NCBI RefSeq assembly: GCF_964204645.1
Contig: NC_134029.1
Span: forward strand, 12,178,850-12,242,849
Source: Tubulanus polymorphus
Taxonomy: Eukaryota > Animalia > Nemertea
DNA: 64,000 nucleotides
Reading direction: 5' to 3'
Below the pieces are notes generated by a model. That model did no database searches and had not been told where the DNA came from. It worked only from the letters and a program-made list of their open reading frames with translations. Positions 2,628-64,000 of the stretch are shown here, piece after piece (within the stretch, counting starts at the first letter, position 1; every line of letters starts with the position of its first letter). Position numbers and translations under genes: made by a program.

Positions 2628-2854
2628 TGTTCAAAGATGGAAATCATGTAATGTTTTTATATAAGCTCAATAAAAGGTATATATTGTGATCAATGAGATC
2701 TAAAGAGAATAATTCATTTGTTGTTTAAAATTTGTAATGTAAGTTATATCCAATTGAATCACACCCACGTGGGTCATAACTCCCAACAGGCTTTTATAAC
2801 CTTCACCTTTCTGGCCGTAGACAAAAGCTAGTTAATTTGGAAAGTTTTGAAGAC

Positions 2855-3297
2855 GCTTCACAATCACAATCACAGCATCTATATCTCCCTCACAATCACA
2901 GCATCTATATCAACTTCACAATCACAGCATCTATATCACCCTCATAATCGCAACATCTATATCATCATCATCGCAGCATCTATATCACCCTTACAATCAC
3001 AGCATCTATATCAACCTCACAATCACAGCATCTATATCACCCTCACATTCACAGCATCTATATGACCCTCACAACCACAGCATCTAAATCACCCTCACAA
3101 TCACAGAATCAGTACCACCCTCACAATCGCAACATCAATATCATCCTCATCATCGCAGCATCTATATCTACCTCACAATCAGAGCATCTATATCACCCTC
3201 ACAATCACAGCATCTATATCAACCTCACAATCACAGCATCTATATCACCCCACAACCACAGCATCTATATCACCCTCATAATCACAGCATCTATATT
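2855..3297 (+). repeat. ~26-bp minisatellite (TCACAATCACAGCATCTATATCACCC)n
   Basis: Directly visible tandem units. Preceded (2761-2860) by a degenerate copy of the HINE-B head (gttttgaagacgcttca). Confidence 0.9.
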
Positions 3298-4521
3298 ATA
3301 CTCACAATATGGAGCTACAAGCCGATACGCGGCGCTGATTAGCAACTCAGTCTCACCGCAACGTGGCGCTGCAGTATTGCTTCGTTATTTTCAAGTTTTT
3401 TAACGGCCAACTTCCTTGAGGTTATCGTGAATAGATGCTGCTGTCGTGAGTCACAATGAATTCCAAACAAGATAAATGAAATGACGTTACCAGAATTGAA
3501 ATTGGAACTGAAAACGTTCGGGGCAAAGGTGTCTGGTAGAATAAGAGCTTTGTGAGAGGTGATTTTTATGTCCATTGAATTGAATTGTCTGTCTATTTTA
3601 TTGCATTTTACTCCCGGGTTCGGCACAGGCACAGAGAACGATTTTTAGGCCAGCCGTAGGCTATACAAATGGGGCGAATTTAAATGACGTGGTTTCCAGA
3701 GTAAAGGCTCTTTGACTGTGCAACTGAGCATGTATTCGTACAAATCATTCCTTAAAGCATTATCCATTCTCCAAACTCTACGTAGCTGAATTTTGAAAGA
3801 GGGCCTAGTTAAAATTTATATGAGCTTTTTCGCGAAAATCGGATTGCAAAAATATTGGTTTAGAAAAGCCAACCAGAAAGCAAAGACTCCTCTATGATTG
3901 GCTTAGCTGCAGAGATCAGCAGGTGTTCACGTGAACCCGCGGTATCGTCTACCGTTTTACTTCCGGGTTTGATTTTAAGATCTAAATTTGTATTTCAAGA
4001 TTGATTTCTGTGAAAGCTTTAGTTGATTTGGTTTTTCGGAGGAATATTTTTAATAGCACTACAGAAAATGTCATTGACAATTGTGCAAACTCCGGGAAAA
4101 AATAGCTTTTTCTAAAATTGGATAGGTGACCTTGATATGCTAATTTGCCATGTGCGAAGTGCAAATTCAATCAAATTTTATTCTGCATTAAAATATCAAA
4201 TCCAATTCAATTTTACTTTATTGAACAAATAAAAACATCAAATCCAATTCAATGTTGTATTTCCGTCGAGTACTGTACCCTTTCCTATGGTTTTCGCCAA
4301 TATTTTCTAAATTTGGATTGATCGCCAATGGTTTTTCTATACGACCCGGCCCTGCGGTATTGCATTTTAGCCACTGGCGAAATCCGCCATCTTTTTTCTT
4401 GTCATTCTTGTATATGAACGCGTTGGATTTTTTTCGCTATCCCTTGTTTCTTTTTTCCCGAAAAAATTAAACTAATTTAATTTAATTTAATTCATTATTG
4501 TGACCGATTAATTGAATAATT

Positions 4522-16405: not shown

Positions 16406-16759
16406 ATGGAGAGTAAACAAGCACACAGTGAGAACAACAAATTATTTCTAGATAGAATAAAAGATACTTCAAATGTCAAATCAGTAGATTATAAATTCAA
16501 GAAGTTAAAAGAATTAACAATCCATAAGAAATATCTAATTACAGATATTGTTAGAGTTACTAACAAATATGGAGATAAATTAGTTATATACTTAGAATAT
16601 GAAGGATTAAAAGGAAATACATATAAATTCAGAACATATTTACCGGATAGATTTCATAGATTATCAAGCGAAGATCTAGAAGAATTATGTTCAGGTGATT
16701 TCTATTTCGTATACAAAGGTAAGAATGAAAAAGGGCATCATGAAATAGATTTCGAATAA
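16406..16759 (+). CDS. P1 small protein, probable OB-fold ssDNA-binding; homolog of 62723-63049
   Basis: Shared motifs KYGDK/KYGEK, YLPDRF/FLPDKW, YKGKNEKGHH/YHGKNEDGHH. The fold assignment is inference. Confidence 0.55.
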   Translation: MESKQAHSENNKLFLDRIKDTSNVKSVDYKFKKLKELTIHKKYLITDIVRVTNKYGDKLVIYLEYEGLKGNTYKFRTYLPDRFHRLSSEDLEELCSGDFYFVYKGKNEKGHHEIDFE

Positions 16760-35786: not shown

Positions 35787-36868
35787 TTATTTGAATACAT
35801 TTAGGATAAAGGATGAGCCGTTTTGAAATAATTGTTGATTTAAAGAGGGTCGTTGCGCTTTAATAAACAGGGCCTCCCTAATTTTACAGTCGAGATCAGA
35901 TGAACCTTTGTCTAGAATTTTGAATTTGTTGTTACTGAATTCCTGATCACAAGTGTGACAAATTGCGAGATGTTGTCCAATCGCAGAAGTCTTTGATCTG
36001 TGTTCCTTAATCCTGATGGCCAAATGTCGTTTAGTTTTCCGAATATAGGAAGTGTTTATATCACATAAACAATTAAATTTATATATGACTTTAGCCTTCA
36101 GCGATTTAGGGGTAGCACATTTCAAAGAGAAAAAATTCTTAATTTTGGTCGTAGTGAATGCACATTTCAAGTTGATTTCAAAATTCCTTTTAAATAGATA
36201 TTTTAATTTTTGGGCAAATAGGATTGACGGGTTACCAATATACGGTAATGAAATGAATAGATCAATTCCATCTTCAACAGGTTTCGGTTGAGGTTCTGAG
36301 TTCTGTTTTGATTTCAAAAATCTATTAATACATTGATCGATGACATGAATAGGAAACGCATTAGATTTAAACAGATTTTTCAAGAAATGAAATGAATAGA
36401 TCAATTCCATCTTCAACAGGTTTCGGTTGAGGTTCTGAGTTCTGTTTTGATTTCAAAAATCTATTAATACATTGATCGATGACATGAATAGGAAACGCAT
36501 TAGATTTAAACAGATTTTTCAAGAAATTGATTTCTTCTGAAAAGATGGTCCAATCACTGCAAATATTGTAGGCACGAAAAAGCATGGTATTGATGAGTCC
36601 TATTTTCCATTTATACGGACACATGGCGTTGAAGTTCAAAAGTAGGCCTGTGTTGGAAGCTTTCCTGTACACTCGAGATATAAAGTCACTACCGGTTTCT
36701 AACGGAATTTGTATTTCGGTATCGAGAAAAGGTAATAGATTAGGACCTAGTTCAAAAGTGAATTTAAGGTTAGAATGGAGGCGATTCAATTCTTCAAAAA
36801 ATAGTTTATAACTGGATACACTTTTGAACTATGCCGAAAATATCTTCCACGTATCTCAGGTATAATGT
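35787..36868 (-). mobile_element. Penelope-like retroelement, 5'-truncated (RT C-terminus + GIY-YIG), with an internal ~139-bp duplication
   Basis: YLRYVEDIF, LKFTFE, LPFLD, VYRKASNT, LPYIG, VIYKFNC...YIRKTKRHL..RIKEH, REALFI...PSLN. Confidence 0.92.
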
Positions 36869-39800
36869 CGGTTTTATCGCCTGCGACAATTCATTATTTT
36901 TGTTTTATCGCCAGCGACAATTCATTATTTTGGTTTTGTCGCCCGCGAAAATCCTTCTTTTTAGTTTTGTCGCCCGCGACAATTCATTATTTTGGTTTTA
37001 TATTTTGTTTTTGTCGCCCGCGACAATTTTTTTTTGGTTTTGGCGCCCGCGACAATTTTTTTTTGGTTTTGTCGCCCGCGACAATTCAATATTTTGGTTT
37101 TATCGCCCGCGATAATTCATCATTTTGGTTTTGTCGCCCGCGATAATTCATTGTTTTGGTTTTATCGCCCGCGACAATTCATTATTACGGTTTTATCGCC
37201 CGCGACAATTCATTATTTTGGTTTTATATTTCGTTTTTGTCGCCCACGACAATTTTTTTTTGGTTTTGTCGCCCGCGACAATTTTTTTTTTGATGTGTCG
37301 TCCGCGACAATTCAATATTTTGGTTTTATCGCCCGCGACGATTCAATATCTTGTTTTTGTCGCCCGAGACAATTCATTATTTTGGTTTTATCGCCCGCGA
37401 CAATTCATTAGTTTGGTTTTATCGCCCTCGACAATTCAATATTTTGGTTTTGTCGCCCGCGACAATTCATTAGTTTGGTTTTGTCGCCCGCGACAATTCA
37501 ATATTTTGGTTTTGTCGCCCATGAAAATTCAATATTTTGGTTTTATCGCCCGCGACAATTCATTACTTTGGTTTTATCACCACCGACAATTCATTATTTT
37601 GGTTTTGTCGCCCGCGACAATTCATTATTTTGGTTTTATATTTTGTTTTTGTCGCCCGCGACAATTTTCTTTTTTGGTTTTATCGCCTGCGACAATTCAA
37701 TATTTTTGTTTTATCGCCCGCGATTATTCATTATTTTTGTTTTGTCGCCTGAGACAATTCATTATTTTGGTTTTATCGCCCGCGACAATTCATTATTACG
37801 GTTTTATCGCCCGCGACAATTCATTATTTTAGTTTTGTCGCTCGCGACAATTCACCATTTTGGTTTTGTCGCCAGCGACAATTCATTAATTTGGTTTTAT
37901 CGCCCGGGACAATTCAATATTTTGTTTTTATCGCCCGCGACAATTCATTATTTTGGTTTTGTCGCCCGAGACCATTCATTACTTTGGTTTTATCGCCCGC
38001 GTCAATTCATTATTTTGGTTTTGTCGCCCGCGACAATTCATTATTTTGATTTTGTCGCCCGCGACGATTCAATATCTTGTTTTTGTCGCCCGAGACAATT
38101 CATTATTTTGGTTTTATCGCCCGCGACAATTCATTAGTTTGGTTTTATCGCCCTCGACAATTCATTAGTTTGGTTTTGTCGCCCGCGACAATTCATTAGT
38201 TTGGTTTTATATTTTGTTTTTGTCGCCCGCGACAATTTTCTTTTTTGGTTTTATCGCCTGCGATTATTCATTATTTTTGTTTTGTCGCCTGAGACAATTC
38301 ATTATTTTGGTTTTATCGCCCGCGACAATTCATTATTACGGTTTTATCGCCCGCGACAATTCATTATTTTAGTTTCGTCGCTCGCGACAATTCACCATTT
38401 TGGTTTTGTCGCCAGCGACAATTCATTAATTTGGTTTTATCGCCCGGGACAATTCAATATTTTGTTTTTATCGCCCGCGACAATTCATTATTCTGGTTTT
38501 GTCGCCCGAGACCATTCATTACTTTGGTTTTATCGCCCGCGTCAATTCATTATTTTGGTTTTGTCGCCCGCGACAATTCAATATTTTGGTTTTGTCGCCC
38601 ATGAAAATTCAATATTTTGGTTTTATCGCCCGCGATAATTCATCAATTTGGTTTTGTCGCCCGCGACAATTCATTATTTTGATTTTGTCGCCCGCGACGA
38701 TTCAATATCTCGTTTTTGTCGCCCGAGACAATTCATTATTTTGGTTTTATCGCCCGCGACAATTCATTAGTTTGGTTTTATCGCCCTCGACAATTCATTA
38801 GTTTGGTTTTGTCGCCCGCGACAATTCATTAGTTTGGTTTTGTCGCCCGCGACAATTCAATATTTTGGTTTTGTTGCCCATGAAAATTCAATATTTTGGT
38901 TTTATCGCCACCGACAATTCATTATTTTGGTTTTGTCGCCCGCGACAATTCATTATTTTGGTTTTATATTTTGTTTTTGTCGCCCGCGACAATTTTCTTT
39001 TTTGGTTTTATCGCCTGCGACAATTCAATATTTTTGTTTTATCGCCTGCGATTATTCATTATTTTTGTTTTGTCGCCTGAGACAATTAATTATTTTGGTT
39101 TTATCGCCCGCGACAATTCATTATTACGGTTTTATCGCCCGCGACAATTCACCATTTTGGTTTTGTCGCCCGCGACAATTCACCTTTTTGGTTTTATCGG
39201 CCGCGACAATTCAATATTTTGGTTTTATCGCCCGCGACAATTCATTACTTTGGTTTTATCGCCACCGACAATTCATTATTTTGGTTTTGTCGCCCGCGAC
39301 AATTCATTACTTTGGTTTTATCGCCACCGACAATTCATTATTTTGGTTTTGTCGCCCGCGACAATTCATTATTTTGGTTTTATATTTTGTTTTTGTCGCC
39401 CGCGACAATTTTCTCTTTTGGTTTTATCGCCTGCGACAATTCAATATTTTTGTTTTATCGCCCGCGATTATTCATTATTTTTGTTTTGTCGCCTGAGACA
39501 ATTCATTATTTTGGTTTTATCGCCCGCGACAATTCATTATTACGGTTTTATCGCCCGCGACAATTCATTATTTTAGTTTTGTCGCTCGCGACAATTCACC
39601 ATTTTGGTTTTGTCGCCCGCGACAATTAACCATTTTGGTTTTGTCTCCCGCAACAAACATTATTTTGGTTGTGTCGCCCCGGCAATTCTTTTTTGGGTTT
39701 TGTCGCCCGCAACAATTCAATATTTTGGTTTAGTCGCCCGCGACAATTCAATATTTTGGTTTTGTCGCCCGCGATAATTCATTAATTTTGTTTTATCGCC

Positions 39801-41582
39801 CGCGACAATTCAATATTTTGGTTTTATCGCCCGCGACAATTCATTATTTTGGTTTTATCGCCCGAGACCATTCATTACTTTGGTTTTATCGCCCGCGTCA
39901 ATTCATTATTTTGGTTTTGTCGCCCGCGACAATTCATTATTTTGATTTTATCGCCCGCGACGATTCAATATCTTGTTTTTGTCGCCCGAGACAATTCATT
40001 ATTTTGGTTTTATCGCCCGCGACAATTCATTAGTTTGGTTTTATCGCCCTCGACAATTCAATATTTTGGTTTTGTCGCCCGCGACAATTCATTAGTTTGG
40101 TTTTGTCGCCCGCGACAATTCAATATTTTGGTTTTGTCGCCCATGAAAATTCAATATTTTGGTTTTATCGCCCGCGACAATTCATTACTTTGGTTTTATC
40201 GCCACCGACAATTCATTATTTTGGTTTTGTCGCCCGCAACAATTCATTATTTTGGTTTTATATTTTGTTTTTGTCGCCCGCGACAATTTTCTTTTTTGGT
40301 TTTATCGCCTGCGACAATTCAATATTTTTGTTTTATCGCCCGCAATTATTCATTATTTTTGTTTTGTCGCCTGAGACAATTCATTATTTTGGTTTTATCG
40401 CCCGCGACAATTCATTATTACGGTTTTATCGCCCGCGACAATTCATTATTTTAGTTTTGTCGCGAGCGACAATTCACCATTTTGGTTTTGTCGCCAGCGA
40501 CAATTCATTAATTTGGTTTTATCACCCGGGACAATTCAATATTTTGTTTTTATCGCCCGCGACAATTCATTATTTTGGTTTTGTCGCCCGAGACCATTCA
40601 TTACTTTGGTTTTATCGCCCGCGTCAATTCATTATTTTGGTTTTGTCGCCCGAGACAATTCATTATTTTGGTTTAATCGCCCGCGACAATTCAATATTTT
40701 GGTTTTATCGCCCGCGACAATTCATTATTTTGGTTTTATCGCCCGCGACAATTCAATATTTTGGTTTTATCGCCCGCGACAATTCATTATTTTGGTTTTA
40801 CATTTTGTTTTTATCGCCCGTGCCAATTTTTTTTTTGGTTTAGTCGCCCGCGACAATTCAATATTTTGGTTTTGTCGCCCGCGATAATTCATTAATTTTG
40901 TTTTATCGCCCGCGACAATTCAATATTTTGGTTTTATCGCCCGCGACAATTCATTATTTTGGTTTTATCGCCCGCGACAATTCATTATTTTGGTTTTGTT
41001 GCCCGAGACAATTCATTATTTTGGTTTAATCGCCCGCGACAATTCAATATTTTGGTTTTATCGCCCGCGATAATTCATTATTTTGGTTTTATCGCCCGCG
41101 ACAATTCATTATTTTGGTTTTATCGCCCGCGACAATTCAATATTTTGGTTTTATCGCCCGCGACAATTCATTATTTTGGTTTTATATTTTGTTTTTATCG
41201 CCCGTGCCAATTTTTTTTTGGTTTTGTCGCCCGCGACAATTCAATATTTTGGTTTTATCGCCCGCGACAATTCATTACTTTGGTTTTGTCCCCCGAGACC
41301 ATTCATTATTTTGGTTTTATCGCCCACGACAATTCATTATTTTGGTTTTGTCGCCCGCGACAATTCATTATTTTGATTTTGACGCCAGCAACGATTCAAT
41401 ATTTTGTTTTTGTCGCCCGAGACGATTCATTATTTTGGTTTTATTGCCCGCGACAATTTAATATTTTTGTTTTATCGCCCGCGAGAATTCATTAGTTTGG
41501 TTTTATCGTCCGCGACAATTCATTAGTTTGCTTTTGTCGCCCGCGACAATTCAATATTTTGGTTTTGTCGCCCGCGACAATT
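36868..41582 (+). repeat. 31-bp satellite (TTTGGTTTTRTCGCCCGCGACAATTCATTAT)n with higher-order block duplications; resumes at 42984-43305
   Basis: Roughly 150 visible units. Core TTGTCGC-CC-GCGACAA is palindromic. Variant units recur in the same order. Confidence 0.97.
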
Positions 41583-45267: not shown

Positions 45268-45812
45268 TGAAAAAAGAACAATATTTAAGAGATTTATATC
45301 ATAACCCAGAGAGTGAAGTATCATATTCTAGTGTTTCAGAATAATGGGATAAAATAAAATTTGATAATGAAAATATAAAATATAGTGAATTAAAATTATG
45401 GTTACAAAATCAACCAACATATCAAATTCGTAAGAAAATGGATACAAATTACTTAACAAGAAAAGTTATGGTTTCATATATTGATCAACAATGGCAAGCA
45501 GATTTAATTGACATGAAGAATCATTCAGAGGTTGTTTGGAACAATTTATATGGAGCGTGTGTTACTCATGATTTTGGAGAACCTAAATTTAAAATAGGAC
45601 AACACGTTAGAATATATAAATATCGAAAAAACATTTTATAAAGGTTATACTCCATATTTTACCGAAGAAATATTTAAGATTAAAAAGATAATATTAACTA
45701 AACCTTTTGCTTATAAATTAGAAGATTTAAAAGATGAAGAAATATAAGGTTATTTTTATAAACAAGAATTATCACTTGTACCAAATCCAGATGAAATAGA
45801 ATACAAAATAGA
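45268..45812 (+). pseudogene. P2 integrase remnant with catalytic core deleted; continues at 63803
   Basis: Matches 25335-25580, then jumps to ~26000-26290. Ends EIEYKIE; KVLKTK resumes at ~63803. Confidence 0.85.
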
Positions 45813-46853
45813 ATAAAAGACCAATGGTCTTGTAGCTCACCTGACCATTAACTAATAGACAGTTTAAAGACTTGTTATATCCCATTTCTAAAATGGATTA
45901 GACGCTGGTCTTATTGCAAGGGCTGGTGCCGTGGCAAGATGGGAAGTGGAAAATCGATATACACATTGCCTTTCAAACCTTCAAAGGAGCGATCAAAATC
46001 AAACGGCAACTCTTGTTTTAATAACCATATTTATTTTCAGATAATGATATCCATATCAAAAGATAGGATAGGCGCTAGGCCTAATCATATCAGAAGTTTT
46101 GTCTTTTATATATAGAATATTGTTTGAAACGTGTTTTTTGAAAAAATCTATAATTCCTGCTTCAATGAGTCGAGGTGGTGATTCATTCTTGGGGTACCGG
46201 TATCTGTAAAACAATGCGTAAGATCAATAGAAATAAAGTGAAAAATAAATTGCATTGAATTGAATTGCAATCACAGTGTAGTAGACAAGAGGATTGATAT
46301 CCTGTCCGTCGGTCCCGTACTAACATCTCGCTGTAGTAGACATTTTTGGGGCACTAAAGACCAATGACAATCATTATTCATAGAATATCTTACCTTCAAT
46401 GAGCAGAAATACCGTGTAAATACACGTGTGAATAAACCAGGAAATGCGGTAGTGCGCGGTGTCACTAGTGTACGGAGACGCATCGGGGTCATTCACAAAT
46501 ATAATCAAAGCAACCGAAACTTTGATCTGTTGAAACACAATGTCAACATTGCGACTAAAATATTATGAAATAAATTTAACCTTGATCTCGATTGATTCGA
46601 ATTTAAAACAAAAATCCACCATTCGGCGAATTCTGTCCACACTTGAATTTTAAAAATGTTCCTAATAGGCTACCATATATCTTGGATCTATCCAAGAAAC
46701 GATAGTTCATAGGTCGAGCCACGTTATTAGAGAGTTAGGCGAGAGTCAGACCCCTGCGTTTAGACCGGAGTAATTATAAAAGTGGGGTTTCAGATCAGAG
46801 TACGAGAGTACTAAACACCACTCATCACCACAAGTAATTTTTTTCCCTAATAA

Positions 46854-49800
46854 ATGGGAGAGAGTGAGTTCCAACTAGAAAACAATAATGTCAATAAAAA
46901 TCAATATTATTGTCAATATTGTAAAAAATACATCGATAAATCTAATAAAACTAAACATGAAAAATCTTCAAATCATATAAAAAATGTAATAGATTTTGAA
47001 ACTCCAGAAAATTCCAATGAAAGAAAAGAAAGATTAGAAAATATGAATGTGGATGAAATAAAATGAAATGAAGTTTGTAATGAATTTATAGTAAAAAGGA
47101 ATTATAATAGACATCTCGAATCACAAAAACATTATAAAAATTTGAGTAATAATGTTTTAGGATTAGAATATTTTGATAATAAACCTCAACAAGTAAAAGA
47201 ATCAACTTCAAAAACTAAATCCATTTCAAATAAACCTTACATGGAAAATGTTAGAAATTATATTGATTCACTAGAAATAAAAGATACAATTGAAATCTTA
47301 GAAACATTACATAGTAAAATTGGTCCTGCAGCTATTATATTTAGATTTTTTAAAGGTACAACAATAGAAGATTATAGTAAATTTAATGAAATAATAGAAA
47401 AAATAATAGATTTGATAACAGATGTTGAATATCCAAAAATTAGTATCTCTGGGAAAGTAAGTTTTATAAAGTCAGAAGAAAAAATGAATTACAATATTCA
47501 AACACTCTCTGAAGAAATAATTTCAAAAACACAAATAAAAGAGAAGTTAGAAAAAATATTAAATGAATTTAAACGTCATATTGAAGAAAGATATTTTGAG
47601 GGTTCTGGCTTAACATTGAACGAAATTATATATTTAGATTTAAATGTTTATAATACAAAAAGGAATAAAACATCAAAAAGTAATAAAATGTTTAAAAATG
47701 ATTCAAACTTTACAACAGAAAAGGATATTAAAGCATCATCTTATATTAAATTACCATTTACAACAAAAGCAGTAATAAATGTTCAAAATGAAGATAATAA
47801 ATGTTTTCTATGGTCAATTATTAGTTGCTTACATCCAACACAGGAAAATGTTTGTAGAATAACGAATTACCGGAAATATGAAACATTATATAAAATTGAT
47901 CAATATCCAGTAACTATAAAAATGATTCCTAAAATAGAAAAAGTTAATAATTTAAAAATAAATGTATTCGAATTAATGCAATTACCAAAGACAAAAGGTG
48001 AAAATATTAAAGATTATACATTGGAAGCTTTATATTTAACAGAATATTATGATGATGAAAATGCTATAGATTTGTTATATTACAAAAAAGATGAAAATGA
48101 ACATTATATGTGGTTAAAACAAATTGATTTATTCTTTAGAACAACAGAAAGTGATCATCATCGTAAAATTTATCTATGTAGAAAATGTTTATCTAAATTT
48201 ATGACTGAGAATACATTACTAAAACATAAAGAATTATGTGATAATAAAGATTTTTGTAAATTAATAATGCCAACAGAAAAAGATTATAAATTGAAATTTA
48301 CTAATCATAAATTTAAAAATATTGTTCCATTTGTAATTTATGGGGATTTTGAATCGTTGAGTAAAGAATTAACTGATCAAGATAGAAAAGAAATATATAA
48401 CAAAAAGCAATTATTAAAATCAATGGATAAAGGAAATGATTTAAATGAAGACATAATACAAGACCCACCAATTATAAATACAATTTAAAAAGTTCATCAA
48501 AGAGCTGCTGCTTATGGAATTTATATAAAATCAAATTATCCCGAATTATATGAAAGTCAATATATTTCTTTTAGAGGTGAAAATGTAGTTAATGATTTTT
48601 GTGATAAAATTATTGAATTAGAAAGTGATTTTGCAAAATTATTAAACAAAAATAAAAGAATAGTTATGACAAAAGAAGATGAAATTGATTTTAATTATGC
48701 AACTCATTGTTGTTATTGTGAAAAACGTTTTTATTCATTTGATAAAAGAGTTAGAGATCATGATCATTTAAATTCAAAATATCGTGGAGCTGCTCATGAA
48801 GATTGCAATTTACAAGCTAAAAAAGTAAATTTCGTACCAATATTATTTCATAATTTATCAGGATATGATACCCATCTATTTATAAAACAATTATCGGGAA
48901 AATTGGGCGCAATTAATCAAGAAATAGAAGAATATAATGCTATGAATGAAGCAAATGTAAGAAAATATGATTTTAAACTATTAGCTAAAACATCTGAAAA
49001 TTATATTTCATTTCAATTTGGTTGCATTAGATTTTTAGATTCTTATAGATTTCTAGCAAGTTCATTAGATAATTTATCAAAATCATTAGTTGATAATGAT
49101 TTTATTATAACTCGATATTATTATCCAAATGACCAAGATTTTAAATTATTGAGATATAAAGGCGCAATTCCTTATTCATTTTATAAAACACATGATGATT
49201 TTAATGTAACAGAATTATTAAAAGATCAATTTTATGATAAATTAAAAGAGGAGTATGTGAAAGATGAAGTGTTTAATAGAACATTAAATATTTGGGACCA
49301 TTTTAAGATGAAAAATCATGGTGAATTAGTTGATTTATATTTAAAATCAGATGTTATGATATTGGCTGACATATTTGAAAAGTTTAGAGAAGTTAATCTA
49401 AACCATTTTAATGTTGATCCTTGTTATTGCTACTCTAGTCCTGGTTTAACCTGGCAATGTGGTTTAAAATATACAAATGTAGAATTAGATTTATTAAAAG
49501 CACCAGATATGGTTTTATTATTTGAAAAATCAATTAGAGGTGGAATTAGTGGTGTTATGGGAGATAGGTATTTTAAAGCAAATGATGAATATAAATTATT
49601 ATATATTGACGCCAATAATTTATATGGTTGGGCAATGATGCAACCTCAACCATATAAAAATTTTATATTAACAGAAGTTGAAAATGATGATGAAACTGAT
49701 TGGGAAAGCGCAATTGCGAGTTTAAAAGATGAAGCACCAATTGGTTATTTCTTTGTAGTTGATTTAGAATATCCTGAAAATATAAAGTTTAAAACAAGAA

Positions 49801-51923
49801 ACTTACCTTATTGCCCAGAACATTTAACTGTAGATGATAGTTATTTAAGTGAATACCAGAAGAAAATAAAACCGAAAGATCATGTTTTTACAGAAAAATT
49901 AATACTTACTCAAAATAATAAATATAATTATATTGTTCATTATAGAATGTTAAAATTTTATCTAAAACAAGGAATGAAATTAAAGAAAGTACATAGATAT
50001 ATTGAATTTAATCAATCGAAGTGGTTAGAAAAATATATAGATTTCAATACTCAACAGAGAACAATATCAAAAAATGATTTTGAGAAGGATTTCTTCAAAT
50101 TAATGAACAATGCATTTTATGGTAAAACATGTGAAAACATAAAAGATAGAAACGACATTGAGTTAGTGAATAATTCTGAACGATTGAGACACCTACAATC
50201 AAGCCCCAGACATTTACAAAATAAAAGATTTGAAGATTATTTGACCGCGGTAAAATTAAAAAGAACATCATTAAAATTTAATAAACCCATTTTCATTGGT
50301 TCGACTGTTTTGGAAATTTCAAAGCTATTGATGTATAATTTTTATTACAATGTTTTACAACCATTGTTTGGGGAAAAACATATAGAAATTCTGTACTTCG
50401 ATTCTGTAACGGCCGACACCCCAATATTATTAAAATGTAATAATAAAATATTGGTAAGAAGAATTTCAGAAATAATTCCAAAACAAAATGAATGTTATAT
50501 TTCATATGGAGAAAAAGAATTAATACAAATAAATGGTTTAATGGATGTTTGGACAAGAAATGGATGGAAAAAATTAAATAATATTATTAGACATAAAACA
50601 AATAAGAAAATCTATAGAGTTAGAACTAAATTAGGATTTGTAGATGTTACAGAAGATCATAGTTTAATTAAACAAAATGGCGATGAAATAAAACCAACTG
50701 ATATAAAAATTGGAGATGAATTATTACATAAAAGATTTTACCCAAGAATGAATCATATGTCATTTGATGAAATAATTGATAATATTTATAATATAGAACC
50801 TGAAACATTGGAAGAAAAAGAATATTTTATCAAAGGATTTTTCATGGGTGATGGTTCAGCAGGTGTGTATAATTATGTTAGTGGAACTAAATATTGTTGG
50901 TATTTATGCAATCAAGACTTAAAATTATTAGAAAGAATAAAGAAATTCTGGGAAGAAGTTTATTCACATAAAACATTCAAAATCATAGATGTTATGAAAT
51001 CAACAGCAGTTTATAGAATACTTGTAAATAATCCTAAAGATTTTGCTATAAAATATAATGATGAATTCTATATTCATGCAATAGTTAAAAGTAATACTTC
51101 AACAAAAGAAAAGATAGTTCCAGATTATGTATTAAATGCAAAAAATAATTTAAGAAAATGGTTCTTCATTGGATTCTATGCTGCAGATGGTTCAAAAAGT
51201 TTCAAAAACCGCAAAACAATATCTTTAGCTCAAAAAGGAAAAGTTGCTATATCAGGATTGAATATATTATGCTGTTCATTAGGATTTAATATGAATATTG
51301 GATTGATTAAATCTAAACCAAATTGCTTTAATTTAAGCCATGTAGAAAATGAGTTAACAGAAGAAGTTAAAGATTTATTTGAAATATATAACCCAACTGA
51401 CTATGTTTATGATTTATCAACAGATGATGGAACATTCAATTCTGGGTTCCCATTAATCCAAAAAAATACCGACGCCTACATATTAAAGATAAAAACTGAT
51501 AACATAACAAAAGACTTAAAAACATTAAAACATCATTTCGACTTTAGTAATTACCCTAAAGATCATGAATTGTTTAGTAATGATAATAAAAAGATTCCTG
51601 GTAAGTTTAAAGATGAATTAGGAGGTGATGAAATGATTGAATTTGTTGGGATAAGAAGTAAAATGTATAGTTATAGAACAAAAGATCATGAAGCTAAAAA
51701 GTTAAAAGGAATAACAAAACATGTGGTTGATAAACATATAGAATTTCAAGATTATATAAAGTGTTTATATAAATCAATTGTAATGAAACACAAAATGAAT
51801 TGTTTAAGATCAGAAGATCATGAGATGTACATTAATGAAGTTGAAAAAACTAGTTTAAATCCATTTGATGATAAAAGGCATATTTTAGATGATGGTATAA
51901 AAACATTACCTTATGGTTATTAA
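46854..51923 (+). pseudogene. P3 protein-primed DNA polymerase B, one frame with two premature stops, intein-containing
   Basis: ORFs 46854, 47142 and 48666 are in the same frame, separated by TGA 47064 and TAA 48486. Contains Zn fingers, CFLWS..HY protease-like region, YGDFE exonuclease, RDHDH..YRGAAH..CN insert, DANNLYG, KLMNNAFYGK, YFD|TD. Confidence 0.95.
50403..51467 (+). mobile_element. Intein (355 aa) with LAGLIDADG homing endonuclease in pPolB motif C
   Basis: Starts SVTADTP, block B VTEDH, GFFMGDGS and GFYAADGS, block F YVYDLST, ends QKN|T. Absent from the P1 homolog (ILYFDTDSYIL). Confidence 0.95.
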
Positions 51924-53221
51924 AACATAAAATCAATATCATCAAACTCGAAATCATTATTAGCTTCTTCATTTTCATTTAATTGTTCAGGTTCTTCTTC
52001 CATTCCATTTTTCTCATTTAAATAAAGTTCTATCTTGTTCCACATTTCATCTCGCTCTCTTTGTTTCTTTTTGTTTGTTAATTCATCAAATGGAATTATA
52101 ATATCTAGGTTTAAATAATTTACAATCTTATTTAAAAAAAATTCATAATTTATTGAATCTGTTATTCTATTTTCTAAATGATACATTAATATTTGTTTAA
52201 ATATTTTTTTTATATTTTCCATATCTTCTTCTGTTAATTTAGGTTTTTCATAATAATCGTTAAATAATAAATATAAATACATTTTCTTTTGTTTTGTGTT
52301 AAATGTTGGTGGAATAATTGTTTTTATAATATCTTTTTTAGTTATTTCACCATTTTTATTTTCTATTATTTTCATTTTTTCAAGCCATTGCTTATATTCT
52401 GGTGTATGATCTTCTATAGAAAATATTTTAAAAATTTCATCAAGATAATTTAATTTTGGATCTATAAGAAAATTTCTAGTTTTTTCTTCATCCCATAAAT
52501 TCTTTTGCCATCCACAATCAACACAAAATAACACAGTACCTTCTTGTCTTAAGGTCGCATAACTACATTGTGGACATTTTTGTTTATTATTTATTGGTAA
52601 TAGATCTTCATTAAGCTCTTGGTATTTTCTTACGTTTTCTTTATGTTTTATTGTTCTATTATGTAGATTTGAATTACTTGTTGTAATAATCAATTTACAA
52701 TATTTACAATAATATGTTTTTCTTGTTAATTCATTATATTGTTTTTATAACTTTTCAACTGTTTCTTCATTATCTGGTAACGTTTTCTCATATTTTATTT
52801 TTTCTAATAAATTATTTTTTCTTTCATTGAATTCAGTTTCAAATTTATTAGAAATTTTATCTATATGTGCTTTACGAAATTGATGATTCTCCCAATCTTC
52901 TATATTGTCAGGGCTATATTTTACTTGACAAGGCTCACAGAAATTATTCTTTACATTATTCTTGTTATAAAATAAAAAAGGTTTTTTCCAAATAACTTCA
53001 GGTTCAACTTCAGCAGAATTACTATCAACATTAGCCGTTGCACCATTAATTCTACACTTCTCTGAATGTTTTTTAACATAATTTCTTGAGAATAATTGAT
53101 TACATTTTGGACAGTTTATTTTAGGGGGTTTATAATTTTCATCATGTTTTTTCATATGTCGAGCCTTATTACTTTTTCTTAGAAGTTCACCACAAATTTC
53201 ACATGCTATCTTCTCATCCAT
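51920..53221 (-). pseudogene. Multi-zinc-finger + VLTF3-like late transcription factor (one in-frame TAA at 52745)
   Basis: ORFs 52745-53221 and 51920-52693 are in frame. Contains CPQC...FCVDCG ribbon and PKL...IKKIF.QI...INYEFFLNKI...ERDEMWNKI C-terminal pattern. Confidence 0.6.
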
Positions 53222-53256
53222 TTATTAGGGAAAAAAATTACTTGTGGTGATGAGTG
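53219..53256 (-). promoter_or_regulatory. 36-bp leader motif CACTCATCACCACAAGTAATTT...ATAAATG (also at 46819, 63047-63084, 63334-63371)
   Basis: The same motif ends exactly at the ATG of four ORFs. Confidence 0.75.
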
Positions 53257-53278
53257 TAATTTTTTTATGTTATAAATA

Positions 53279-54076
53279 ATGGTAGAATTAAAAGAATACA
53301 GAATATTTGTTGATTCAAGAAGACTTACAAATTATAAATCTCATAATTTATTAGTTCAATTAGATAGAGAATTCAAGAATTGTGTAGATTTAAAATTAGT
53401 AAATATAAGTTTATGTAACTCATTTTATAATATATCAGATAAAACTGATGAACATAGAAGCCTTCTTATTTTTGATAAACTTGAAAAAAAATGGATTCAA
53501 CTTATGCTTACACCAGGATTATATAATTTAGAAACATTAGCGCAAGAAATTAATAGAAAAGCTCGGATTAGATTAGGTAATGGTAATTCCAAATTTAATA
53601 TTAAATTCATAAAAAGTGAGAGCTCTAATAAAATTAAAATAAAGCTTGATGATGAACTTATTAAACTTGATAAATCTGATCCATTGATGACAAGAAGACA
53701 TACTTACACGGTAAAAAAACCTATAGCTAAACTATTAGGAATTACTCCAAATCAATTTGGTGGAAACAAACACGGTAACTCAAATATAATACCTTTTACA
53801 CACTTTTATATTTATTGCAATTTAATCGATCCTACAAAAACATTCGAAGCAACTAAAGATACAACATGTAATTCTAGTATATTAAACATTTTACCATTGA
53901 AGAATGTTAAACAATTTGGAACGCAATTAAATTATAATTTAGCTGAATGTGATTTCAAACCTTGTATTCCTCAATTTAATAATTTTAAATTAGAAATAAG
54001 AAATCATAATGGATACTTAATTGATTTGAACAACTTTCCTGTAATTTATGAATTAGTTATAAGATGTAAAGAGTAA
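53279..54076 (+). CDS. P3 putative minor capsid (penton) protein
   Basis: Close homolog of 16774-17535 with a variable central region. Confidence 0.7.
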   Translation: MVELKEYRIFVDSRRLTNYKSHNLLVQLDREFKNCVDLKLVNISLCNSFYNISDKTDEHRSLLIFDKLEKKWIQLMLTPGLYNLETLAQEINRKARIRLGNGNSKFNIKFIKSESSNKIKIKLDDELIKLDKSDPLMTRRHTYTVKKPIAKLLGITPNQFGGNKHGNSNIIPFTHFYIYCNLIDPTKTFEATKDTTCNSSILNILPLKNVKQFGTQLNYNLAECDFKPCIPQFNNFKLEIRNHNGYLIDLNNFPVIYELVIRCKE

Positions 54077-56928: not shown

Positions 56929-58361
56929 ATGGATGTAGAAGGTGGAGAAGATATTGGAATGGATCCTTTTGATGAACCTAACATAACTGATGAACAACCG
57001 CCTGATTTTGATGAAACAAGTTTTAATGATGGTAATGAACCAGAATATAACAATAATTTAAATATGCCTGATTATATTAAAAATGCTGAATCACAATTAA
57101 ATCCTGAAAATTTAGACCCAGATTTAGTAAAACAAGATTTAGATAATTTAAACAAAATACCTAAATTAGAAGATTTAATTGAAAAATCTAATTTTAACAT
57201 AAATGATGAAGACGTTGGACTTTTAGCAGATCAATTAAAATTTTTAGATAATGGTAAATGTTATTATCGTTTGAAAGGTGATTATTATATTGATATCACT
57301 TATAAAAATAATAAAAATAAAATATTATCAGAATCAACTTTAGAAAAATTAAAACCAGATAGAATTAAAATAATAAGTAATAGTAATGAAATAACTGATG
57401 TTACACAAAAAGAAATAGATGATAATATAGATGTATTTAAACAAAGAATTAATGAATTATTTGAAATAATCAAAAAGAAATCAGAAACAGAAACAACTTC
57501 TGAACAGAATATAACTTCCAAAAATAGTAAACATAGATCAAATAAAGTTCCAATTGAAAAACTTTTACCGAATGGATTACTTGATGCAACAGATCAAGAA
57601 TTAGAAGATTTAGATATATTTTCTGATAAAGCAATTAGAGAAATTATTAGTATAAGACTTGCATCTGATAAAATTGCACATAATAAAAGTATAAGAGATA
57701 AAAAAATTACGTATTTGGAAAAAGAATTAACTGATAAAAATAAAGAAATAGAACAATTAAAGTCTGATTTAGATCATCAAGTAATTGATGAAATAGAATA
57801 TAGGCAAAAGAATTACGTTTAGAAAAAGAAATTAGTAATTTAAAAGATAATTTAGAAGTACAGAAAGAAGAAATTAAATTATTATTAAAATCATATGATT
57901 ATAATATTAATAGATTAAAAGTTATTTTTAAAGATTTGTTGATTAAACCAAATTCTGAAATATCATTAAAAGACAGGATAAAGTTATTATTTAAATTAGA
58001 AGGAATAACAATTCTTTCAATTCTAACAGCTGTAACTATGTTATTTACAACAATTGGTTTAGCAATATCAAATGCTTTAAAATCTACTCCTACTCCAAAT
58101 AAACCAGATAAACCTCCAGGAAATAATTCTATACAAGATAAAATTAAAGATGGTTTAAAGAAATTAGCAAAATATTTATGGGAACTATCTAAAAAATCTG
58201 CTGCAGCATTACCAGGAATTATTGCATCAATTGTTGGTTTTATATTGAAATCTGCTGGAAACATTATTAACTTTGCTGCTGAACATATTATTTTATTTTT
58301 AATCACAGTTGTAAGTGCTATTATTTTTGGTTTAGTAAATATGATATCAAAAAATAAATAA
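56929..58361 (+). pseudogene. P3 acidic/coiled-coil protein with C-terminal amphipathic/TM helices, frameshift near 57815
   Basis: ORFs 56929-57822 and 57936-58361 are bridged by coding-like sequence. Confidence 0.65.
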
Positions 58362-58381: not shown

Positions 58382-59627
58382 ATGAGTGGGAGTTATATAA
58401 GTCCTTCTAAGATTTCTAGAATATCTAATGCTATTAAAGCAGAAAGATCACATCATATAATTACTCATAACCCTTCAAATATTAATCCCGATGAAACTTT
58501 ATGTTAGAATTCCGAGATTAACACAAAATACTTTTTATGTTCCAAATAGTATTTATTTATCAGCTGATATAAAAGTATCTGGTAATAATAATAATTATGT
58601 TGTTGATAATGTTGGAAGATATTTGATTAAAAAGTTAACAATAAAGATTGGACCAGAAACAGTTTTCTCATTAGATGATTATAATTTATTTATGCACTAT
58701 AAAGATTTATGGTTAACTAAAGAAAATAGAAATAATATGATATTTCAGGGTATTCAATCAGAAAACCAAAATAAATTAAGATCAGAAGCTAATAGCGCAA
58801 TATTAACAAATGATGTAGATAAATTGATAAAAAGTATATATGGAAGCAAATATAAAATTCCATTAGACTTTGAATTGATAAATAATAATGCACCTTTATA
58901 TAAATACGCAATTCAAGAAGATATTATATTTGAGATAACATTTGCTCCTGTAAATGAAATTGTATTATCTAGCGTTAATAAAGATATGAGTTATAAATTA
59001 TCGAATATATGTTTAGAATATGATACAGTAACTGATGAAAATATTGCTAGAACAATTCAAACTCAATACAATCAAGGATTTTCATTATTATATGATTATA
59101 TTGATAAATTTAAAACTGTAACTATTAATGCAAATGATGAAATAATAAATGAGAATATTAACTTTCCTAGAAGATCTATTAAAGGTATATTAATATTTTT
59201 TACTATTGGAACGTATACTAATGGTGCAATAAATGTTGATAATTATTATAATCCTGAAATAACAAAAGTAGAAATAACTATCGAAGGAATAGCAAATAAA
59301 ATATTTTGTCAAGGAATGAGAATGATAGATCAATGGCCAGAAATTAGAAAACATTTTATGAATGAAAAAGTAAAATCATCTGAAAATTGTAATATTAATC
59401 AAATTGATTATTATACCGGTAATAAATATGCATTATGGTTAGATTTTAGAACAACTGAAGATAACTTATTACATGGTTCTGGAAAAAAACTACAGAACAC
59501 TAAAGATGGAATACAATTATTCATGAAAAAGAATGAAGGAATCAAAAATTTTAAAATGCACATTTATATTATATCTGACGCGCAATTAAATATTGTAAAT
59601 TCACAATTAGATAGTATTCAATATTAG
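58382..59627 (+). pseudogene. P3 major capsid protein (double jelly-roll), frameshift near 58500
   Basis: TAAATG at 58382 gives ITHNPSNINPDETL, then YVRIPRL after a 2-nt slip. Motifs IPLDF, ICLEYD, RSIKGIL, ALWLDFRT. Confidence 0.8.
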
Positions 59628-59657: not shown

Positions 59658-60786
59658 ATGAGTGGTAAAAAAACTCCTAATACTAAAGAACAATATTTAA
59701 GAAATTTATATTACAACCCTGAGAGTTCGGTTGCTTATTCTTCTACTAAAAATATATGGTGTAAAGTAAAACAAGATAAATTAGATAAGATAATCCCACA
59801 AAATTTAGTTAAATATAAAGATATAAATGAATTTATGTTAGAACAACCAACATATACAACACATAAAAAAAATTGTTAGAAAATATAAAACTCGTAAAAC
59901 TATGGTAAGTTATGTAGATCAACAGTGGCAAGGAGATTTAATTGATATGAAAAATGTTAAGAAAGATAATGATGATTATTGGTGGTTATTGAATATAATT
60001 GATATTTTTAGTCGTTATGTATGGAGCTTCCCACTTTATAGAAAAGATGCTGTACAAACATCACATGTTTTAAGAAAATTTCTTTCAGGTGGTAAACTAA
60101 AACCAGAAAAAATTCAATTTGATGATGGAAAAGAATTTGATAATTCATTAGTTCATGGACTTTTAGATTTTCATAATATTAAATATTTTTCAACAAAATC
60201 GGATAAAAAAGCAGCAGTTGTTGAACGATTTAATAGAACATTAAGAACAAGAATGTGGAAATATTTTACAGCAAATAATACTTTTAAATGGATTGATGTT
60301 TTACCAAAATTGATAGAAGGATATAATAATTCTTATCATTCTTCTATTGGAATGAAACCTATTGATGCTAGAAAACCTGAAAATGCTGAAATTGTTTGGA
60401 ATAATTTATATGGAGCATTTCTTGTTGATGATTTTGGTGAACCTAAATTTAAAGTTGGTCAAAATGTTAGAATTTCTAAGTATAAAAAGATATTTGACAA
60501 AGGATACGATCGAAATTTTACTAGAGAAATATATAAAATAAAAAAGGTAATAACAACAAAACCATATGTCTATAAATTAGAAGATTTAGATGGTGAAGAA
60601 GTTGATGGATATTTTTATGAAGAAGAATTAAGTTTAACTACTGAAAATCTAGAACAAGAATATAAAATTGAAAAAGTACTAAAAACAAAAACTGTTAAAA
60701 GAAAAAAATATTCTTTAGTAAAATGGGTTGGATGGCCAGATAAATTCAATGAATGGATATTATCAAGTAAAATTAAAAATATATAA
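59658..60786 (+). pseudogene. P3 rve integrase + chromodomain, frameshift in A-run near 59870
   Basis: WQGDLIDM, IDIFSRY, FDDGKEF, VERFNRT (DDE intact), LVKWVGWPDKFNEWI. Confidence 0.93.
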
Positions 60787-61395
60787 ATGAATAAAGAATT
60801 ATTTATATTTGAGCCTCATAATATGTTAATTTCTGGTGTAACAAATTGTGGAAAAACTTATTTTATACTACATTTATTAGAAACTGTTTATGAAAACTAT
60901 TTTGATAATATAGTATTATTTTGTCCAACATATGAATTTAATCAAACTTATGATAAAAATATTACTAGGAATAATAAATTTATTATATTAGATCCTAAAA
61001 CAGTAAAAGAAAATTTAGATAATTGTATAAAAATAGCAATTGATATTTATAAAGGATCAAATACATTATTTATCATAGATGATTGTGCTAATCTACATGA
61101 TTCAAAAGTTAGAGAAAGTGAGTTATGTTATTTAGCTTTTTCTGGCAGACATTTTGGGATAACAACTTGGGTTTTAAATCAAAAATATAATTCAATTGTT
61201 AAAGACTTTAGAGAAAACATTAGATTTCTAGTTTTATTCTACAATAAAGATAGAAAATCGATGAAAAATGCACTTAAGGAAAATGATATTATTCCACATG
61301 ATTTACATAATGAATATATGGATAAGTTGAAAAATATTAAAAGATCAAAATTACTATTTAGATTACAACACCCATTTAAATATGAATTTATTTAA
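60787..61395 (+). CDS. P3 packaging ATPase (A32/FtsK-like)
   Basis: GVTNCGKT, FIIDD, SGRH, NQ motifs; intact ORF. Confidence 0.93.
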   Translation: MNKELFIFEPHNMLISGVTNCGKTYFILHLLETVYENYFDNIVLFCPTYEFNQTYDKNITRNNKFIILDPKTVKENLDNCIKIAIDIYKGSNTLFIIDDCANLHDSKVRESELCYLAFSGRHFGITTWVLNQKYNSIVKDFRENIRFLVLFYNKDRKSMKNALKENDIIPHDLHNEYMDKLKNIKRSKLLFRLQHPFKYEFI

Positions 61396-62722: not shown

Positions 62723-63049
62723 TTAATCAACAATTTCTAAATCATGATGGCCATCTTCATTTTTTCCATGATAGATTATTTTAAATCCTTCTAAATCTTT
62801 TAATTCCTCTGTACTCAATGAAACCCATTTATCAGGTAAAAATACTTTAAATTCTCGCGATGTACTAACATTACAGTAGCTTAAATTAGCTGATACTTTC
62901 TCTCCATATTTAGTTTTTATCTTTTCTAATTTCAATATTTTATGTTCAATTTCTTTTGTAACATCAACTAACTTTTTTATTTCAAATTGTTTTTTTGCTG
63001 GTTTTATTCTGTTATTTATTGTTGCTAAGAATGCTTTTCTATCTCCCAT
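62723..63049 (-). CDS. P3 small protein, probable OB-fold ssDNA-binding
   Basis: Homolog of 16406-16759; preceded by the 36-bp leader motif. Confidence 0.6.
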   Translation of the reverse strand: MGDRKAFLATINNRIKPAKKQFEIKKLVDVTKEIEHKILKLEKIKTKYGEKVSANLSYCNVSTSREFKVFLPDKWVSLSTEELKDLEGFKIIYHGKNEDGHHDLEIVD

Positions 63050-63132: not shown

Positions 63133-63336
63133 TTACGCGCACTCACTGTTTATATGTGACACAATTTTACTACGTAATATTTCTAAAATTTCAATTATAT
63201 CTTTTATTTCTAGTGAATCAATATAATTTCTAACATTTTCCATGTAAGGTTTATCGATGTATTTTTTACAATATTGACAATAATATTGATTTTTATTGAC
63301 ATTATTGTTTTCTAGTTGGAACTCACTCTCTCCCAT
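63133..63336 (-). CDS. Mini-ORF in the right TIR: internally deleted copy of the pPolB N-terminus
   Basis: Joins sequence matching 46854-46940 to sequence matching 47235-47321. Expression unknown. Confidence 0.5.
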   Translation of the reverse strand: MGESEFQLENNNVNKNQYYCQYCKKYIDKPYMENVRNYIDSLEIKDIIEILEILRSKIVSHINSECA

Positions 63337-63802
63337 TTATTAGGGAAAAAAATTACTTGTGGTGATGAGTGGTGTTTAGTACTCTCGTACTCTGATCTGA
63401 AACCCCACTTTTATAATTACTGACCGGCCTGGAGGTAAATCTAGACGTTTTTCCAGCTAGAATTATGTGAAAATGTTTGAACAACACCCAAAACTTTATA
63501 CTACTAGCAGTCCGGGTCTATTTTGATTTCACAGAAACGCATGTATACAAAAAGAACGGCAATTTGCTTCGATTTTGGTATATTTTTGATTATTTCACAA
63601 AAATACGAGTTCAGAACTCTATGAAATTTTCAGATTGTAAAATAGATACTATATGACAACTCCGATAAAAAAATCAGATCTCAGGACCATCTAGATAAAA
63701 AGTGTGCCACCCGTTTTACTGAATTTTTTTGCGATAGGAAAATGCATTGGTAGGATGACGTCATCAGCTAGTGATAGCAAAAGCGAACCATAGGTTCGCT
63801 AA

Positions 63803-64000
63803 AAAGTATTGAAAACAAAACATTACGTGGTAAGAAATATTCTTTGGTTGAATATAAAGGGTATGATGATAAATTTAATGAACGGATTTTATCTAGTAAA
63901 ATTAAAAGAATAAATGAATAAAGATTTATTTATATTTGAACCACATAATAGGTTAGTTACTGGAGTAACAAATTGTGGTAAAACACATTTCATATTAGAT
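63803..64000 (+). pseudogene. P2 integrase chromodomain end and ATPase start (runs off the window)
   Basis: Homologous to 26292-26490; GVTNCGKT visible. Confidence 0.85.

Follow-up and report, generated by a model that had tools for sequence, protein, structure and literature searches.

Results

A gene joining zinc fingers to a VLTF3-like domain in a Polinton

The 64,000-nucleotide stretch of Tubulanus polymorphus DNA analyzed here (contig NC_134029.1, positions 12,178,850 to 12,242,849; hereafter the window, in which all coordinates are counted) contains a canonical Polinton/Maverick element, P2 (46769..63421; 16,653 bp), with 175-bp terminal inverted repeats (TIRs; 46769-46943 and 63247-63421), a 6-bp target site duplication (GACCGG) and genes for a protein-primed DNA polymerase B (pPolB), an RVE integrase, an A32 ATPase and a major capsid protein (MCP). 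On the minus strand of P2, at 51920..53221, lies a gene of 433 codons with one internal stop, the product of which combines zinc fingers with a domain resembling VLTF3, a late transcription factor of poxviruses.

Read from 53221 to 51920, the minus strand is a single 433-codon frame whose sole stop is a TAA at codon 159 (52747-52745); the remaining five frames across this interval contain 18-83 stops each, and 10,000 shuffles of the interval gave a mean of 45 stops and a minimum of 24. Both annotated open reading frames (ORFs; 158 aa and 151 aa) fall in this frame, and the proposal of the initial annotation that they are one frame split by a single TAA is borne out by translation and by the shuffle control. 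Two separate genes can be ruled out, as the homologues are single ORFs. The frame encodes four Cys/His fingers (residues 7-26, 37-56, 95-119 and 172-193; 52643..53203), the fourth of which is zf-U1-like (Pfam zf-U1, E = 1e-6), with CTCF fingers matched at E = 0.001 in a sequence search of PDB. These are followed by a C4 zinc ribbon (residues 216-236, then a glycine; 52514..52576) that aligns with the A2L/VLTF3 ribbon, and by the VLTF3 helical domain (52007..52483), which is predicted to form a single cyclin fold and has an acidic, low-confidence tail behind it. The motifs INYEFFLNKI (residues 357-366) and ERDEMWNKI (residues 389-397) are located in the helical domain, so all parts that had been named beforehand (fingers, CxxC ribbon and both motifs) are present in the frame.

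Sequence and structure evidence for a VLTF3 homologue

The Pfam Pox_VLTF3 search (PF04947) that the initial annotation had proposed gave no match at E ≤ 1 for either the full frame or the domain alone; as the curated cut-off was not reached, the protein is classed as a divergent VLTF3-like homologue and not as a member of PF04947. A phmmer search of 1.84 billion representatives with the part downstream of the stop gave four matches. P0002 and P0003 have the full architecture (four fingers plus ribbon) and are 41% and 31% identical to the query, P0004 aligns with the query C-terminus only, and P0005 (E = 2.6e-5) is a plain VLTF3 (Pfam VLTF3, E = 1e-24) that is 63% identical to the VLTF-3 of Amsacta entomopoxvirus. 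The finger-VLTF3 architecture was found only in P0002, P0003, P0006 and P0007.

Three entomopoxvirus VLTF-3s were among the 6 matches of an earlier profile that included P0005. Because P0005 is itself a VLTF3, the profile test was repeated without it, and a profile that contained no annotated VLTF3, being built from the query together with two domains of the Polinton type, retrieved 6/6 annotated VLTF3s at 25-49 bits. Reciprocally, a profile of the six annotated VLTF3s alone scored the query domain at 33.5 bits, as compared to a best score of 10.6 in 1000 shuffles, and an entomopoxvirus-only profile scored it at 20.7 bits, as compared to 10.5 for shuffled sequence. In ESM Atlas, clusters with Pox_VLTF3 ranked first (top score 0.96) and accounted for 27/30 matches. 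Compared with the VLTF3s, the query has lost none of the four ribbon cysteines and retains the C-terminal motifs.

An AlphaFold model (pLDDT 75) was compared with viral models by Foldseek, and poxvirus VLTF3 models took ranks 1, 2 and 4 (E = 3e-6 to 9e-5; best match E = 3e-6, TM 0.58); 4/7 viral matches at E ≤ 0.001 were named VLTF3 or late factor. With VIA-align against solved structures, the top 23 rows all had a cyclin fold, TFIIB and archaeal TFB among them (Z 4.0-5.1), and the helical domain of approx. 160 residues aligned to one cyclin repeat. Foldseek against PDB gave nothing at E ≤ 0.001 and weak matches to TFIIB and Rap94 chains at E ≥ 0.03. The PDB sequence search gave zinc-finger-level matches only, a word-indexed search of proteins, queried with the frame read through its stop, gave none at E ≤ 0.001, and NCBIfam yielded nothing useful for this protein. 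A longer search found P0003 only, which is weak evidence of rarity, and scans of viral_contigs gave zero loci, whether the query was the VLTF3 domain, alignment A3, the ATPase, MCP, pPolB or the upstream box.

Some of these results count against the assignment. Identity between the query and VLTF3s is only 22-25%, with Pfam Pox_VLTF3 silent; the ESM Atlas recognition score, 1921, does not reach the range in which high scores become strong evidence; the Foldseek likeness is partly borrowed, as VLTF3 rows were present in the folding alignment; and VIA Z scores of 4-5 fall in the range usual for helical bundles. Overall, the product of 51920..53221 is very probably homologous to VLTF3, and its domain is predicted to consist of a TFIIB-like ribbon and one cyclin fold. 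The VLTF3/TFIIB-like identity that had been suggested for it is supported by the reciprocal profiles, phmmer, ESM Atlas, Foldseek and cyclin-fold matches, and the structure prediction that had been recommended for the joined frame returned poxvirus VLTF3 models as best matches together with a cyclin-fold likeness. The best matches also suggest a poxvirus affinity of the domain, the nearest named relatives found being entomopoxviral.

Other copies of the gene and a related element without it

Genomic reads of run X6, which carries the same species label, were used to assess the internal stop; 221/231 reads differ from the window within codon 52745-52747 (the sampling covers approx. 12% of the run, and copies are judged from reads). 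Contigs from X1-X3 that span the stop codon also differ from the window, and P0002, P0003 and P0007 are each encoded by one uninterrupted frame. As most X6 reads differ and the homologues are open, the stop appears to be confined to the P2 copy or to a small minority of copies, and it most likely represents decay after insertion. The search for a sense codon in other copies, as proposed beforehand, therefore found the stop not to be conserved. Programmed readthrough as a family trait is ruled out, since the stop is missing from most reads.

The window also contains P1 (11967..27527, plus strand, ends approximate), a decayed relative of P2 without the VLTF3 gene. DNA similarity between P1 and P2 stops at 51918 and restarts at 53274, a tblastn search found no second copy of the VLTF3 gene in the window, and the slot in P1, which is bounded by pPolB and the next gene that both elements have, holds a different gene of 117 aa (16406-16759, plus strand). 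The alignment gap and the tblastn result agree with the initial annotation, according to which P1 lacks the gene at the equivalent position. Mean X6 depth was 245 over the VLTF3 gene as compared to 619 where the shared neighbor begins (ratio of approx. 0.4), and 341 reads at 53278 and 180 reads at 51895 continued into P1-junction-like sequence. The depth ratio and these junction reads thus indicate two multicopy subfamilies, one of which has no VLTF3 gene in the slot. In L001, a VLTF3 homologue is convergent with an open pPolB gene, the same layout as in P2. By these comparisons the VLTF3 gene is accessory in this Polinton family. The initial annotation had noted that VLTF3 is not a canonical Polinton core gene; the surprise attached to this was overstated, as VLTF3 has already been reported in a subgroup of polintoviruses (PMC11131425, citing Krupovic & Koonin 2016).

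Start sites and a promoter-like motif

A 35-bp box directly upstream of the VLTF3 gene (53222..53256, minus strand) ends in a T-run and TAAATG. It is identical to the box that precedes pPolB in the TIR (46819-46853), differs by 3 mismatches from the box preceding a 108-aa gene, and otherwise occurs in the window only in the opposite TIR. Among unselected ORFs of at least 70 aa, 12/21 in P2 start with TAAATG, as compared to 0/22 and 0/11 in the two flanks. In a reduced set, from which two antisense ORFs and three that follow an internal stop were left out, TAAATG was found at 12/16 starts as compared to 9.1% of plus-strand ATGs in P2 (P = 4e-10); of the four starts without it, three lie on pieces of split genes and the fourth is TAAATAATG. 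A T-run at −16..−10 precedes 11/14 TAAATG starts (two of the 14 were chosen from the motif scan) as compared to 5/37 other TAAATG sites, and the base ten positions upstream of TAAAT is likewise a T at 11/14 starts. P2 contains 11 matches to a strict pattern of T-run plus TAAATG, for which a Markov null gave a mean of 0.04 and a maximum of 1, and the rest of the window contains 0. The pPolB and VLTF3 genes of L001 both start with a T-run and TAAATG. Stop-start packing as the origin of TAAATG was ruled out, as stop-start overlaps were present at only 2/14 TAAATG starts.

Vaccinia late promoters are described as having TAAATG over the start codon and a conserved T ten bases upstream amid Ts (PMC11980589), and as carrying, 5-7 bp from TAAAT, a core that contains T (PMC5294985). 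At the level of sequence, the P2 starts match this consensus, with TAAATG over the start codon and a T at the 10th base in a T-rich block.

Different start sites were observed in P1, where pPolB (12419), the 117-aa gene (16406) and a 134-aa gene (21556), all on the plus strand, have in common an A-rich block followed by TATTAAAATG, resembling the vaccinia intermediate class as described in PMC11980589. A similar A-rich block precedes the VLTF3 gene of L002. The 57-bp divergent intergenic region upstream of the P2 VLTF3 gene (53222-53278) holds two back-to-back T-run motifs around a GC-richer core, in which ACCACA presumably represents a RUNX-like candidate site.

Other genes of P2 and its surroundings

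The pPolB gene (46854..51923, plus strand; Pfam DNA_pol_B_2, E = 6e-20), which is convergent with the VLTF3 gene, carries two internal stops (47064 and 48486). Its YxDTD motif is interrupted by a 355-aa intein with LAGLIDADG repeats (50403-51467, plus strand), which P1 and L001 do not have; homing-endonuclease insertions in Polinton pPolBs have been read as likely intein invasions (PMC11161782). Divergent from the VLTF3 gene lies a 265-aa gene (53279..54076, plus strand) without a significant family match, which from its position may encode the minor capsid protein. The plus strand further carries the MCP gene (58382..59627; Pfam Capsid_N, E = 0.008, below the cut-off), in which the motif-bearing start at 58382 is out of frame with the long ORF at 58491-59627; the integrase gene with a chromodomain (59658..60786; rve, E = 3.5e-9), which is present as two ORFs in the P2 copy; and the A32-like packaging ATPase gene (60787..61395; Pfam Pox_A32, E = 5e-13). 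The P2 copy is thus decayed, with stops in pPolB and with the integrase and capsid genes split. Among the 16 P2 proteins, Pfam gave no match to families of RNA polymerase, capping enzyme, VLTF1 or VLTF2 and no significant match to a minor capsid protein or a cysteine protease.

The 108-aa gene (62723..63049, minus strand) is 31% identical (E = 3e-16) to the gene in the VLTF3 slot of P1. This 108-aa/117-aa gene, for which no family match was found, has moved between the subfamilies and yet has kept the promoter class of pPolB in both; its product is possibly a replication accessory protein. A weak match to DUF5679 (Pfam, E = 0.24) was observed at 56929-57822 (plus strand). A homologue of AMEV120/DUF5679 is described as common in coral polintoviruses (PMC11131425), and the match is a possible further link to poxviruses.

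The sequence directly inside the right TIR (63162-63254) is a 96% inverted copy of 47230-47322, which suggests that the TIRs of P2 were formerly longer. P2 was possibly inserted into an older Polinton remnant, since pieces of the integrase gene of a P1-like element lie to either side of it (45273-45816 and 63801-64000). Elsewhere in the window, tandem arrays are found at 36800-41500 and 2812-3302, with units of 31 bp and 26 bp, respectively. A 442-aa ORF had no usable ESM Atlas match.

Discussion

A possible role with a helper polymerase

As VLTF3 alone cannot transcribe, the polymerase that it serves must be that of a helper or of the host. We tentatively favor a role in which a poxvirus-like helper co-infects the cell and the finger-VLTF3 fusion assists its RNA polymerase in initiating at the pox-late-like promoters of the element, over the three alternatives considered below. 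The ribbon would dock onto the polymerase in the manner of TFIIB, and the fingers would bind element DNA, with the 35-bp box as a candidate site, and by this binding would steer the polymerase to Polinton promoters. The VLTF3 gene may be expressed in the same wave as pPolB, and elements without it may depend on the VLTF3 of the helper or of sister copies. Everything in this scheme beyond a homologue with intact motifs is what we infer.

Poxvirus-type polymerases slip and thereby add non-templated A leaders, and an initiator that overlaps the ATG suits such a polymerase. The sharing of promoters between small viruses, i.e., virophages as well as Polinton-like viruses (PLVs), and their helpers is described as established (10.1101/2022.07.28.501842), and PLVs are reported to be present in the occlusion bodies of entomopoxviruses (PMC11296320). 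The initial annotation had proposed either that the element controls its own late-gene cascade or that it taps the machinery of a helper virus. The former is weakened by the multicopy state of P1-type elements without the gene and by the 16 P2 proteins, none of which matched a family of RNA polymerase, capping enzyme, VLTF1 or VLTF2, whereas the pox-late-like start sites lend the latter indirect support.

Other observations speak against a helper polymerase or limit the promoter comparison. Core genes of coral polintoviruses are reported to be transcribed in ordinary coral samples (PMC11131425), which suggests that host RNA polymerase II (Pol II) is able to serve animal Polintons. The helper virus is hypothetical, transcripts and their start sites are predicted from DNA sequence, and the motif patterns were composed after the starts had been inspected. 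P1, which has no VLTF3 gene, has similar starts at several genes, and the motif is thus independent of a VLTF3 encoded in cis. In the entomopoxvirus control L003, TAAATG is found at 8/21 starts and the T-rich block at only 3/8 of these, so that the T-run of P2 is closer to vaccinia than to the nearest group of candidate VLTF3 donors. The promoter comparison spans P2, P1, the flanks, L001 and L003, with P1 as its only VLTF3-less Polinton.

If the helper-polymerase role were correct, it could be extended to the rather unlikely proposal that this canonical Polinton lineage with an integrase lives, in integrated form, as a satellite of some poxvirus-like virus, and that the captured VLTF3 plus fingers is a sequence-specific hijacking factor; the late-type promoters in P2 and the A-rich TAAAATG, intermediate-like class before the replication genes of P1 would fit this proposal. 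If true, it would account for the change of such Polintons from transposon to virion, and their hosts would be expected to harbor poxvirus relatives that have yet to be discovered.

Alternative explanations

The closest alternative, which we regard as somewhat less likely, is that the protein mimics TFIIB in the nucleus: while the fingers hold on to element DNA, the ribbon and the cyclin fold would bring host Pol II, together with TBP, to the TATA-poor promoters of the element, which could then switch on its expression by itself, without a helper. The TFIIB-like predicted fold and the weak Foldseek matches to TFIIB and Rap94 (E ≥ 0.03) point in this direction; TFIIB, on the other hand, has two cyclin repeats, and only one is predicted here. 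The C2H2/U1-type fingers resemble those of nuclear DNA- and RNA-binding proteins, and the integrase implies a nuclear phase. However, an initiator overlapping the ATG would leave nearly no 5' untranslated region, a shortage for which poxviruses compensate by A leaders made through slippage, and vaccinia A2 functions together with the viral polymerase. A2 is listed as a late factor (PMC11980589). The transcription of coral Polintons in host tissue (PMC11131425) is consistent with Pol II, and the title of one paper has TBP targeting vaccinia intermediate and late promoters.

It is considerably less probable that the fusion is a decoy that competes with the VLTF3 of a helper for the polymerase and reduces late transcription of the helper. 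The far divergence of the domain from poxvirus VLTF3 (22-25% identity), together with the fingers and acidic tail, the upstream box held in common with pPolB, from which the protein is probably made early, and the absence of the gene from some members of the family (depth ratio of approx. 0.4) would be expected of such a weapon, but the retention of all four ribbon cysteines and of the C-terminal motifs would not. Captured cargo without a role in element transcription, with TAAATG as a strong translation context in AT-rich DNA, is similarly improbable: P1-type copies thrive without the gene, the architecture is rare (P0002, P0003, P0006 and P0007 only) and one finger is like the N-terminal finger of pPolB (tblastn, E = 0.005), consistent with local shuffling, yet the five-motif architecture is retained at only 31-41% identity, the position beside pPolB is conserved and the fixed T-run at −16..−10 upstream of the ATG is not explained by translation context.

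Relation to known systems

VLTF3 has been treated as a marker confined to the Nucleocytoviricota and undetectable outside that phylum (PMC11253617); the P2 gene indicates that it occurs in Polintons in a form missed by Pfam. Free particles of endogenous polintoviruses are described as not directly observed (PMC11131425). A promoter consensus that matches poxvirus late promoters, beside a poxvirus-type late factor, makes it testable how Polinton capsid genes are expressed and whether a helper is needed.

A literature search that covered few subscription papers gave no account of this promoter in Polintons, and the literature found that pairs Polintons with TAAATG appears to concern virophages and aphid small RNA. 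Neither the finger fusion nor a set of pox-late-like promoters came up in the search, although the fusion could appear in the supplements to the coral and adintovirus studies. Neither feature is described in the accessible text of 10.1101/455816, 10.1101/2024.03.23.586382, PMC8715426, PMC12917281, PMC11161782, PMC3671162 or PMC5803895, and the words "promoter" and "VLTF" do not occur in the main text of PMC11296320.

The P2 protein shares with poxvirus VLTF3 (vaccinia A2; PF04947 plus PF08792) a C4 ribbon followed by a helical domain with aligned C-terminal motifs, and the two give reciprocal profile and structure matches, the nearest named relatives being VLTF-3s of entomopoxviruses (P0010-P0012). 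It differs in having approx. 210 extra N-terminal residues, four fingers and an acidic tail, at approx. 25% identity, and no RNA polymerase, A1 or G8 partner was detected in P2. TFIIB, TFB and Brf likewise have a zinc ribbon followed by a cyclin fold; compared to these, the P2 protein has one predicted cyclin repeat, added fingers and no sequence-level match.

In Mavirus/CroV, Sputnik/mimivirus and Gezel-14T/PgV, a small virus is reported to bear the promoter motifs of a large virus (10.1101/2022.07.28.501842). The helpers of these are relatives of mimivirus in protists with other motifs, whereas the motif of P2 is poxvirus-late-like and P2 encodes its own late-factor homologue. The PLVs associated with entomopoxviruses are, like P2, Polinton-like, are described as sharing genes with poxviruses and have been proposed to be their parasites (PMC11296320); in these an RVE integrase is reported as not detected, or tyrosine recombinases are present (PMC11296320), whereas P2 has pPolB and RVE and its helper is hypothetical.

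Coral polintoviruses, PLVs of the Zephyr group (10.64898/2026.06.19.733378) and MELD viruses (PMC8502044) are likewise described as small elements with pPolB and capsid genes in which VLTF3 is an accessory gene. In comparison with the published descriptions of VLTF3-bearing polintoviruses and PLVs, P2 is set apart by its finger fusion, its suggested poxvirus affinity and its promoter consensus. VLTF3 in Polintons being already known, the new part is the TAAATG/T-run promoter set together with the finger fusion.

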